DNA of 37,194 bases from IMG/VR virus record IMGVR_UViG_2534682162_000005; one strand, written 5' to 3'. This document shows, in pieces, positions 1 through 2,109 of this stretch. This DNA is from a virus (Duplodnaviria; Heunggongvirae; Uroviricota; Caudoviricetes). The notes under the pieces are model-generated. The model was not told the DNA's origin, ran no database searches, and worked only from the letters and a program-made list of their open reading frames with translations. Both the position numbers and the translations under genes were made by a program. Each line of letters starts with the position of its first letter. Position 1 is the stretch's first letter.

Positions 1-1248
1 ATGGCACTGAATATTCCATTCAGAAATGCGTACTATCGTTTTGCATCCAGTTACTCATTTCTCTTTTTTATTTCCTGGTCGCTGTGGTGGTCGTTATACG
101 CTATTTGGCTGAAAGGACATCTAGGGTTGACAGGGACGGAATTAGGTACACTTTATTCGGTCAACCAGTTTACCAGCATTCTATTTATGATGTTCTACGG
201 CATCGTTCAGGATAAACTCGGTCTGAAGAAACCGCTCATCTGGTGTATGAGTTTCATCCTGGTCTTGACCGGACCGTTTATGATTTACGTTTATGAACCG
301 TTACTGCAAAGCAATTTTTCTGTAGGTCTAATTCTGGGGGCGCTATTTTTTGGCTTGGGGTATCTGGCGGGATGCGGTTTGCTTGATAGCTTCACCGAAA
401 AAATGGCGCGAAATTTTCATTTCGAATATGGAACAGCGCGCGCCTGGGGATCTTTTGGCTATGCTATTGGCGCGTTCTTTGCCGGCATATTTTTTAGTAT
501 CAGTCCCCATATCAACTTCTGGTTGGTCTCGCTATTTGGCGCTGTATTTATGATGATCAACATGCGTTTTAAAGATAAGGATCACCAGTGCGTAGCGGCA
601 GATGCGGGAGGGGTAAAAAAAGAGGATTTTATCGCAGTTTTCAAGGATCGAAACTTCTGGGTTTTCGTCATATTTATTGTGGGGACGTGGTCTTTCTATA
701 ACATTTTTGATCAACAACTTTTTCCTGTCTTTTATTCAGGTTTATTCGAATCACACGATGTAGGAACGCGCCTGTATGGTTATCTCAACTCATTCCAGGT
801 GGTACTCGAAGCGCTGTGCATGGCGATTATTCCTTTCTTTGTGAATCGGGTAGGGCCAAAAAATGCATTACTTATCGGAGTTGTGATTATGGCGTTGCGT
901 ATCCTTTCCTGCGCGCTGTTCGTTAACCCCTGGATTATTTCATTAGTGAAGTTGTTACATGCCATTGAGGTTCCACTTTGTGTCATATCCGTCTTCAAAT
1001 ACAGCGTGGCAAACTTTGATAAGCGCCTGTCGTCGACGATCTTTCTGATTGGTTTTCAAATTGCCAGTTCGCTTGGGATTGTGCTGCTTTCAACGCCGAC
1101 TGGGATACTCTTTGACCACGCAGGCTACCAAACAGTTTTCTTCGCAATTTCGGGTATTGTCTGCCTGATGTTGCTATTTGGCATTTTCTTCTTGAGTAAA
1201 AAACGCGAGCAAATAGTTATGGAAACGCCTGTACCTTCAGCAATATAG
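1..1248 (+). CDS. cscB: Sucrose:H+ symporter CscB (MFS, LacY-type oligosaccharide permease), 415 aa
   Basis: Full-length ORF from track; N-terminus MALNIPFRNAYYRFASSYSFLFFISWSLWWS and overall sequence match my recollection of E. coli CscB; 12-TM-like hydrophobic pattern. Confidence 0.9.
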   Translation: MALNIPFRNAYYRFASSYSFLFFISWSLWWSLYAIWLKGHLGLTGTELGTLYSVNQFTSILFMMFYGIVQDKLGLKKPLIWCMSFILVLTGPFMIYVYEPLLQSNFSVGLILGALFFGLGYLAGCGLLDSFTEKMARNFHFEYGTARAWGSFGYAIGAFFAGIFFSISPHINFWLVSLFGAVFMMINMRFKDKDHQCVAADAGGVKKEDFIAVFKDRNFWVFVIFIVGTWSFYNIFDQQLFPVFYSGLFESHDVGTRLYGYLNSFQVVLEALCMAIIPFFVNRVGPKNALLIGVVIMALRILSCALFVNPWIISLVKLLHAIEVPLCVISVFKYSVANFDKRLSSTIFLIGFQIASSLGIVLLSTPTGILFDHAGYQTVFFAISGIVCLMLLFGIFFLSKKREQIVMETPVPSAI

Positions 1249-1689: not shown

Positions 1690-1704
1690 TGGTGTCCCCT
1701 GCAG
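1690..1704 (-). other. Putative attR core: 15-nt match to 3' end of tRNA-Arg (argW-like), CTGCAGGGGACACCA on minus strand
   Basis: Plus strand reads tggtgtcccctgcag; reverse complement ends in ...GGGGACACCA, the acceptor 3' strand plus CCA that I recall for argW. Lies between host cscB side and torI. Confidence 0.5.
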
Positions 1705-1777
1705 ACATCTACTTGACGAGGCAGGGGATTGATTGGAATGGTGTTTTTTAGATATGAGAAATATTTTACCCGCTATT

Positions 1778-1978
1778 TTACCCATTGGCGCGGCTTAAGA
1801 GCTTATTTTTGAATTCACAATGGTCACGATATAACCATCTTGCTCGCCCGTGGATAACTTTGGCTTTAGGCAGGTCTCCGGACTTAATCCGGTCATAGAT
1901 GAAGGTCTTACCAAAGCCAGTATCAGCCATGATGAATTTCAAATCAACCAGTGAATCAGGCTGTAGTTCGTGTTGCAT
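1778..1978 (-). CDS. torI: Excisionase / recombination directionality factor TorI (AlpA-Xis family), 66 aa
   Basis: ORF from track; MQHELQPDSLVDLKFIMADTGFGKTFIYDRIKSGDLPKAKVIHGRARWLYRDHCEFKNKLLSRANG matches my recollection of E. coli TorI (KplE1 prophage excisionase); adjacent to att core. Confidence 0.8.
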   Translation of the reverse strand: MQHELQPDSLVDLKFIMADTGFGKTFIYDRIKSGDLPKAKVIHGRARWLYRDHCEFKNKLLSRANG

Positions 1979-1996
1979 GAGTGCTATCTCCGAATA

Positions 1997-2013
1997 GGGA
2001 ATCGAACCTGCAA
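1997..2013 (-). other. tRNA T-arm-like fragment (TTGCAGGTTCGATTCCC on minus strand)
   Basis: Plus strand gggaatcgaacctgcaa; reverse complement contains the GGTTCGATTCC T-loop motif and matches the argW T-arm region as I recall it; not a complete tRNA. Confidence 0.4.
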
Positions 2014-2023
2014 ATCAGGCAAT

Positions 2024-2043
2024 AAAAAACCGCCATCAGGCGG
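2024..2043 (-). terminator. Rho-independent terminator (minus strand) between early-left genes and torI
   Basis: Stem ccgcc(2030-2034)/ggcgg(2039-2043), loop atca; A6 run 2024-2029 on plus strand gives a U-run after the stem on the minus strand. Confidence 0.5.
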
Positions 2044-2109
2044 CTTGGTGTTCTTTCAGTTCTTCAAATCGAATATTGGTTACATTGTTTTCATATATGA
2101 ATAAATAAA

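Follow-up and report, generated by a model that had tools for sequence, protein, structure and literature searches.

Two pieces of a tRNA-Arg gene stand on either side of the excisionase gene torI in the stretch of viral DNA analysed here (37,194 nucleotides, hereafter the window), about 290 bp apart. Are they the halves of one tRNA 3' end parted by the excisionase gene, or copies of different origin and role? The preliminary description had taken them for a tRNA 3' half split around torI and had seen in the phage/host junction a hint of a composite att region. The comparison with related loci led to another reading: the region is, with good confidence, attR of a P22-like prophage with a KplE1/HK620/Sf6-type argW recombination module, and the T-arm piece upstream of torI is probably a relic under constraint.

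Phage/host junction and att core

The permease gene at 1-1248 lies on the chromosomal side of attR. In B4103-1, which is 100 % identical to the window over 1250-2400, an oligosaccharide MFS transporter gene stands beside cscA, dsdA and a dsdX remnant. Matches to some part of the window between 1250 and 2400 came from more than 4,000 complete E. coli genomes. Genomes with an empty site matched over 1250-1704 and then passed directly into tRNA-Arg, and K-12 derivatives matched from 1690 inward, over 1690-2028, with a gene annotated as torI. Since the empty-site match ends at 1704 and the K-12 match starts at 1690, the host/phage boundary is placed at 1704/1705, with an identity block of 15 nt (1690-1704). 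The junction that had been proposed at this core was thus borne out by the alignments to empty sites and to KplE1 of K-12.

On the minus strand the block reads CTGCAGGGGACACCA, the sole match in the window at up to two mismatches (0 expected), and it copies the 3' end of argW, which ends in ...CTAATTGCAGGTTCGATTCCTGCAGGGGACACCA in K-12 and identically in B4103-1. The published core is a 16-mer, CTGCAGGGGACACCAT (PMC2951348); the host base after CCA is a G in this case, hence the identity of 15 nt versus the published 16. Integrase exchange inside this 15-16-bp identity block left the core CTGCAGGGGACACCA(T), copied from the 3' end of argW, where the prophage meets the host DNA of the cscB side. 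Junction and argW att system are already known and well studied in E. coli K-12, and what their confirmation chiefly adds is the position of the prophage boundary (1704/1705) and the assignment of the parts (Table 1).

Table 1. Features of the attR region, in window coordinates
Feature	Position	Strand	Basis or remark
Host flank: cscB-type sucrose permease, LacY family	1-1248	+	Pfam LacY_symp, E = 1.7e-193
attR core CTGCAGGGGACACCA, duplicate of argW positions 62-76 (its 3' end); in K-12 the equivalent is 'pawZ'	1690-1704	-	Alignments to empty sites and to K-12 KplE1
attR P arm, counterpart of the published minimal in-vitro attR	1705-1801	-	Primer mapping and K-12 attR alignment
Inverted core copy, gcagggga on the plus strand, pairing with tcccctgc at 1695-1702 across an 18-nt spacer	1721-1728		Kept in nearly all relatives
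Pair of direct repeats TATTTTACCC, read as GGGTAAAATA on the minus strand, with a 12-bp period; putative arm-type (P) sites of IntS	1762-1783	-	Motif match, relatives
torI, 66-aa excisionase (RDF) and TorR inhibitor	1778-1978	-	ORF list, protein identity, annotation
Shine-Dalgarno block of torI, CGGAGAT	1986-1992	-	Entropy of 0-0.33 bits per column in the relatives
T-arm copy TTGCAGGTTCGATTCC, argW positions 47-62	1998-2013	-	16/16 match to argW
Part of the T-arm copy conserved across the family, GTTCGATTCC	1998-2007	-	Begins 29 nt before the ATG
Intrinsic terminator (hairpin 2027-2046 and T-run), end of the upstream operon	2019-2046	-	Common to lambda, P22, HK022 and Stx phages

For the P arm, the primer attR-IHF2 (PMC3509656) was placed by eye on the window at 1782-1801. 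A P22-like genome makes up the remainder of the window; in it, Eag-like and DUF551 genes adjoin torI and Pfam finds the head-binding N-terminus of a tailspike from 35203 onward. The window ends in the tailspike gene; the prophage exceeds it, and attL, intS and the intact argW of this prophage fall beyond its limits. In B4103-1, identical over 1250-2400, the far end carries intS and tRNA-Arg.

The TorI protein is 100 % identical to that of E. coli loci, one of the K-12 type included, and gave a weak Pfam match to HTH_17. Its gene adjoins attR as a TorI-type RDF gene and is read toward the att core. Expression of torI is reportedly limited by Rho-dependent termination, a finding ascribed to Menouni et al. 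2013. In phages of this type, the control of excision is held to act mainly on the RDF gene (PMC2951348). Next to torI, a small Cys-rich ORF on the minus strand (2110-2322), annotated as Eag in a related genome, gave sub-threshold Pfam matches to zinc-ribbon and Lar restriction-alleviation families. On the plus strand, 1928-2055 resembled the Rfam sRNA STnc130, antisense to the start of torI and ending at the bidirectional terminator, with 25 bits against a gathering score of 55; this match is probably due to chance. As an Rfam family for the leader STnc130 was rejected, the sub-threshold score being mostly driven by the terminator.

Arm-type repeats and inverted core copy

The direct repeat over the torI stop had been described as 9 bp long, ATTTTACCC at 1763-1771 and 1775-1783. 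Both copies are present at these positions, but the full repeat comprises 10 bp, TATTTTACCC at 1762-1771 and 1774-1783, and copy 2 overlaps the TAA stop codon of torI (1778-1780). The shorter motif TTTTACCC occurs five times in the window, compared to 0.71 expected occurrences. A repeat pair over the excisionase stop codon was present in every relative examined, in phage g341c as GGGCATAAA. In K-12 and B4103-1, attL just upstream of intS has the arm sites GGGTAAAAAG, AATTTTACCC and ATTTTTACCC, which have GGGTAAAA/TTTTACCC in common with the attR repeats. Arm-type sites of IntS contain a conserved TAAA within GGGTAAAA (PMC2951348), a sequence motif present twice in the P arm and kept in relatives; the sites of TorI, in contrast, are GTTCG, GATCG and GTCCG, five in number and located on attL (PMC2951348, PMC3509656). 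Judged by these motifs, the most fitting assignment of the repeats at 1762-1783 is to the integrase, as arm-type (P) sites, and not to the excisionase. Of the two binding partners initially suggested, the recombinase agrees with the arm motif and the RDF does not.

A 43-aa ORF on the minus strand (1654-1785) begins in the arm repeats, crosses the core and ends in host DNA. Since integration alters its 3' part, it is unlikely to be a genuine gene. Small ORFs are annotated across attP at the equivalent place in the phages Midgardsormr38 (ORF36) and g341c (gene 18, whose annotation notes a similarity to Sf6 gene 17).

The P arm also contains an inverted copy of the core, arranged as TCCCCTGC, 17-23 nt and GCAGGGGA in nearly all relatives (L004-L020, L177-L256). 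Compensatory changes in core and inverted copy were seen in two loci, CCCCTACA/TGTAGGGG in L017 (G-C to A-T) and TCCCTGCAT/ATGCAGGGA in L018 (C-G to T-A). Many non-E. coli lineages have a stem of 11-12 bp around a T-loop-like loop (TGATTCGAT), similar to an acceptor/T-arm minihelix ending in ACCA. The inverted copy could serve as paired integrase sites or as a hairpin. In the P' arm, the presumed excisionase-binding repeat varies by Xis clade, as GTTCG, CATTACC/GTTACC or CAGAACC (L001, L004, L005, L006, L142, L152, L169). The integrase arm motif varies too (GGGTAAA versus GGGCATA), and the argW core target is constant. As a group, the P' arm variants form a natural series in which specificity switches and the module remains the same.

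A probable second argW copy upstream of torI

The minus strand at 1997-2013, TTGCAGGTTCGATTCCC, had been called a T-arm in its full length. Its initial 16 nt (1998-2013) are exactly the TTGCAGGTTCGATTCC of argW in K-12 and B4103-1, whereas the 17th base, the C at 1997, is a mismatch to the T of argW. With this match and the argW 3' end at 1690-1704, the proposed origin of both fragments in argW was confirmed. In 37 kb, about 2x10^-5 exact occurrences of a given 16-mer are expected, and one match was found in the window; chance was ruled out as its source, the match being exact in 16 of 16 positions and kept in relatives. ARAGORN detected no tRNA gene in the window, Rfam gave no tRNA match in 1500-2300 even at E<=10, and a contiguous tRNA 3' half (30-mer) was absent from the window even at three mismatches. 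Neither the cloverleaf nor the contiguous 3' half of a tRNA gene, pseudogene or split tRNA is thus found.

A terminator block at 2016-2083, a common mosaic linker, has 93-99 % identity with lambda, P22 (3' end of eag), HK022 and many Stx phages; in each case it is located shortly before xis. With this block directly upstream, the T-arm piece lies precisely where a widespread terminator gives way to the ribosome-binding site of torI. K-12 has the identical T-arm sequence upstream of torI, and homology between K-12 and the window starts about 15 nt upstream of the piece. The free phages vB_EcoP-611R6, HK633, Kapi1 and phiv205-1 align unbroken across T-arm piece, torI and core (~97 %). We infer that the piece belongs to the module and travels with it in free phages, and that no local rearrangement took place.

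A common truncated reading frame, ...LTLDEAC(Q/A)FLKIS, was observed just upstream of the T-arm copy in K-12 (ypdJ, L001 10595-10735) and in the g341c clade (L006, ~2440-2500). It resembles the start of an excisionase/AlpA-type helix-turn-helix gene cut at a mosaic joint. YpdJ gave no Pfam match.

A split tRNA would require that the insertion of torI (~290 bp) had parted one argW 3' half, a composite att region that the att sites of two elements adjoin. The arrangement in E. coli invites both thoughts: the two pieces flank torI in the same orientation and abut exactly, with the T-arm piece ending and the core beginning at argW position 62. The identical layout of K-12 and the free phages speaks against either, and so does the core-adjacent sequence of most lineages. 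Most non-E. coli relatives have TTCGATGTA directly before TGCAGGGG, versus TTCGATTCC before TGCAGGGG in argW; left of the core, Erwinia, Serratia, Citrobacter, Dryocola, Pantoea and Rouxiella read TTCGATGT(A/C) and then TGCAGGGG. Therefore attP already has a T-loop remnant of its own. In E. coli this remnant drifted to GTAGATGTC, which is why it was missed in the preliminary description. With GATTCC in place of GATGT, the upstream copy agrees with the host type. It runs on to CCTG (argW 61-64) in the Serratia locus L012 and the Pantoea locus L015, where it shares bases with the start of the core copy; the exact abutment at position 62 in E. coli is hence lineage-specific. Every core found downstream of excisionase genes was of the argW type, xTGCAGGGGAC(A/G)CCA, and a contiguous form (TTGCAGGTTCGATTCCTGCAGGGGACACCA in attP) was absent among the ~185 loci examined. 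The minimal attR, which supports efficient excision in vitro, has 135 bp, extends from the interior of the torI 3' end (attR-IHF2) to the host flank and excludes the T-arm piece (PMC3509656, PMC2951348). Splitting by torI or adjoining att sites are consequently very unlikely, and neither the split 3' half nor the composite att region could be upheld. The T-arm piece would be a second, host-type argW copy with no part in strand exchange.

Conservation of the T-loop copy in excisionase leaders

Excisionase homologues were gathered by protein similarity, blind to the motif, from one genome per species (L007-L033) and from viral contigs. The sample comprised 185 loci with 91 distinct 60-nt leaders. 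Sixty-five of the distinct leaders had GTTCGATTCC with at least 9 of its 10 bases, 4 had a decaying version (7-8/10) and 22 had none. Of 69 leaders, 61 have the motif begin 29 nt before the ATG; over the whole sample, GTTCGATTCC occupies this place in about 70 %. Column entropy was 0-0.4 bits at nine of the ten positions, the exception being a change of C61 to T (0.72 bits), compared to 1.1-1.24 bits in the 4-nt spacer between motif and Shine-Dalgarno sequence; the block GGAGAT of the latter is as invariant as the motif. At least six unrelated upstream contexts abut GTTCGATTCC. The T-stem TTGCAG, part of the 16/16 match in E. coli, decays stepwise elsewhere (TTCCAG, TTCCAA, TTCCCT, TTCTCA). 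On the alignments, the pattern fits a tRNA-derived segment with constraint on the ten T-loop bases only.

The motif is also found upstream of Xis proteins with only ~48 % identity to TorI: the Salmonella phage g341c, whose Xis is 48 % identical, has AAGTTCGATTCCCaaaccGGAGAT...ATG. The Erwinia phage Midgardsormr38 (~76 % identical over the module) has two tandem copies, AGGTTCGATTCCCgtcAGGTTCGATTCCCaccGGAGAT...ATG. About one quarter of the distinct leaders are without the motif through replacement or clean deletion, the latter removing 25 nt (gcctg/gagat) in Dryocola (L014) and in L238-L250; the motif is decaying in L201, L205 and L242. The element is hence dispensable. The leaders are phylogenetically non-independent, with one identical leader preceding two different Xis clades, and such horizontal spread inflates the apparent conservation. 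GTTCGATTCC nevertheless appears, from these comparisons, to be under purifying constraint at a fixed distance of 29 nt before the start codon.

A protein-coding cause of the conservation was rejected: the frame upstream of the torI ATG is closed by a stop at a distance of 13 codons, no start codon intervenes, and the flanks vary by lineage. The leader past the T-loop was also considered as a further argW 3' end, however in register only 6-8 of 15-16 positions agree, which is not significant. The motif together with the pattern CCGGAGAT matched the large viral contigs L118, L145 and L166 (85-119 kb) as well, in these cases without a downstream excisionase; these matches may represent a genuine tRNA-like context.

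The new point is that a host-type argW T-loop copy is a conserved part of the excisionase leader at a fixed position. It spans elements of Escherichia, Salmonella, Erwinia, Edwardsiella, Pantoea, Serratia and Citrobacter, independent of the DNA-binding specificity of the excisionase. We found no mention of the copy in the papers available to us on argW-integrating modules, in which it appears to be undescribed.

Possible function and origin

Binding of TorI to the T-arm copy as an operator for torI autoregulation would be a conceivable role, as the motif includes GTTCG, the published recognition pentamer (PMC2951348), and the Erwinia phage has it as a tandem pair. An RDF binding site would be expected to follow the RDF specificity of its clade, but the sequence of the motif does not: it is still GTTCGATTCCC where the P' repeats are CATTACC/GTTACC (L142, L169) or CAGAACC (L152). 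Moreover, the base after GTTCG is an A in the motif, compared to C or T at the GTTCG-type sites in the P' arms of E. coli and Erwinia, and the tandem copies are 16 nt apart and thus out of helical phase. An operator is in consequence highly improbable. Recognition of argW by the integrase is the only DNA specificity common to all clades, and the motif is identical to the attB sequence directly left of the core; the T-arm copy could then be an extra core-type site of the integrase, an attB-like 'B' half that binds the torI leader or joins the intasome. The corresponding 'C' position of attP, however, varies freely (TTCGAT, TTAGGT, TGTGAT, GTAGAT). Given this variability, TTCGAT is not required there by the integrase, and the stronger invariance upstream would stay unexplained. 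In-vitro excision runs without the piece (PMC3509656), and no inverted partner or overlap-like sequence follows the motif, so we regard an integrase site as distinctly unlikely. A neutral relic, conserved in appearance by the recent horizontal spread of one leader block, would agree with the identical leader in front of different Xis clades and with the loss or decay of the motif in ~30 % of the distinct leaders. It is harder to reconcile with a 10-mer unchanged amid at least nine spacer variants and at least six unrelated 5' flanks, or with the bimodal distribution (65 intact, 4 intermediate, 22 absent), which lacks a continuum of decay; neutrality seems doubtful.

We tentatively prefer, as a speculation, a function in which the T-arm copy acts in cis on the expression of the excisionase within the mRNA leader. 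A role in cis would agree with the constant spacing to the start codon, with the gathering of mosaic joints at the 5' edge and with the RDF-centred control of excision (PMC2951348). GTTCGATTCC would mark the edge between exchangeable DNA upstream and the expression unit of the excisionase. The UUCG(A) of the copy might pair weakly with (U)CGGA in the ribosome-binding site; alternatively, the copy might contribute to Rho loading or termination. The possible pairing is the only recurrent RNA feature of the leaders; it comprises 4-5 bp, and both sides are invariant. A conserved RNA structure was not found in the leaders (RNAalifold -1.7 kcal/mol, 3 pairs), so the conserved structure with covariation that characterises a structured cis-regulatory RNA is lacking, and a 6-bp leader hairpin occurs only in the Edwardsiella and Pantoea stewartii versions. 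The search for an antisense partner within the xis-attP-int unit yielded only 7-10-nt matches at chance level, one of which is found repeatedly at a single int codon, simply a consequence of the conservation of both sequences. No sigma-70 promoter was found at the T-arm copy.

GTTCGATTCC keeps all signature bases of a T-loop (G53, T54, T55, C56, purine 57, A58, C61). A tRNA-mimicking leader element, read by a host factor for T-loops, by Rho or by the ribosome and setting the amount of excisionase, is nonetheless improbable. If true, the element would be one component of the 'main control of excision', which work on KplE1 has attributed to the RDF gene. As for the origin of the copy, it may most simply be the scar of an old capture of argW beside the excisionase gene, after which the part competent for crossover decayed; a longer upstream copy through CCTGCAGGGGACACCA in distant relatives would fix this origin. 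If the element controls the synthesis of the excisionase, it bears on the exit decisions of prophages, O-antigen-modifying phages included. Without a role in this synthesis, it is still a useful evolutionary marker of the left edge of the module.

Comparison with known systems

The closest known system is KplE1 (CPS-53) of E. coli K-12 with intS, torI, attL and attR, to whose attR/torI region the window is ~97 % identical over 1690-2028. Both have the same core, arm repeats and TorI protein, and the T-arm copy upstream of torI. In K-12, the right end of the cryptic prophage CPS-53 carries torI and the same 15 nt, which are annotated as the pseudogene pawZ, and argW and intS lie at the left end. 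The host flanks differ, the csc sucrose locus in the window and dsdC in K-12, as does the identity block with 15 versus 16 nt. Upstream of 2028 the window continues with the terminator block of the lambda/P22 type and K-12 with yfdT/ypdJ; unlike the 10-kb remnant KplE1, the prophage of the window has a large P22-like genome with a tailspike. HK620, Sf6, Kapi1 and HK633 carry the xis-attP unit as in the window and integrate in argW, without a difference relevant to the present question. For Kapi1, Sf6, HK620 and KplE1, attP is located between int and xis, and the published att site is AATGGTGTCCCCTGCAG (PMC8787464).

The core of the window is a phage-borne copy of a tRNA 3' end and in this respect resembles the general duplication of tRNA 3' ends at att sites. 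Phage att cores are said to copy the tRNA 3' end commonly, whereby the gene is restored after integration; this view is attributed to Reiter 1989 and Williams 2002. Beyond this general picture, the window has a second, host-type T-loop copy, ~290 bp inside the phage and upstream of the RDF gene.
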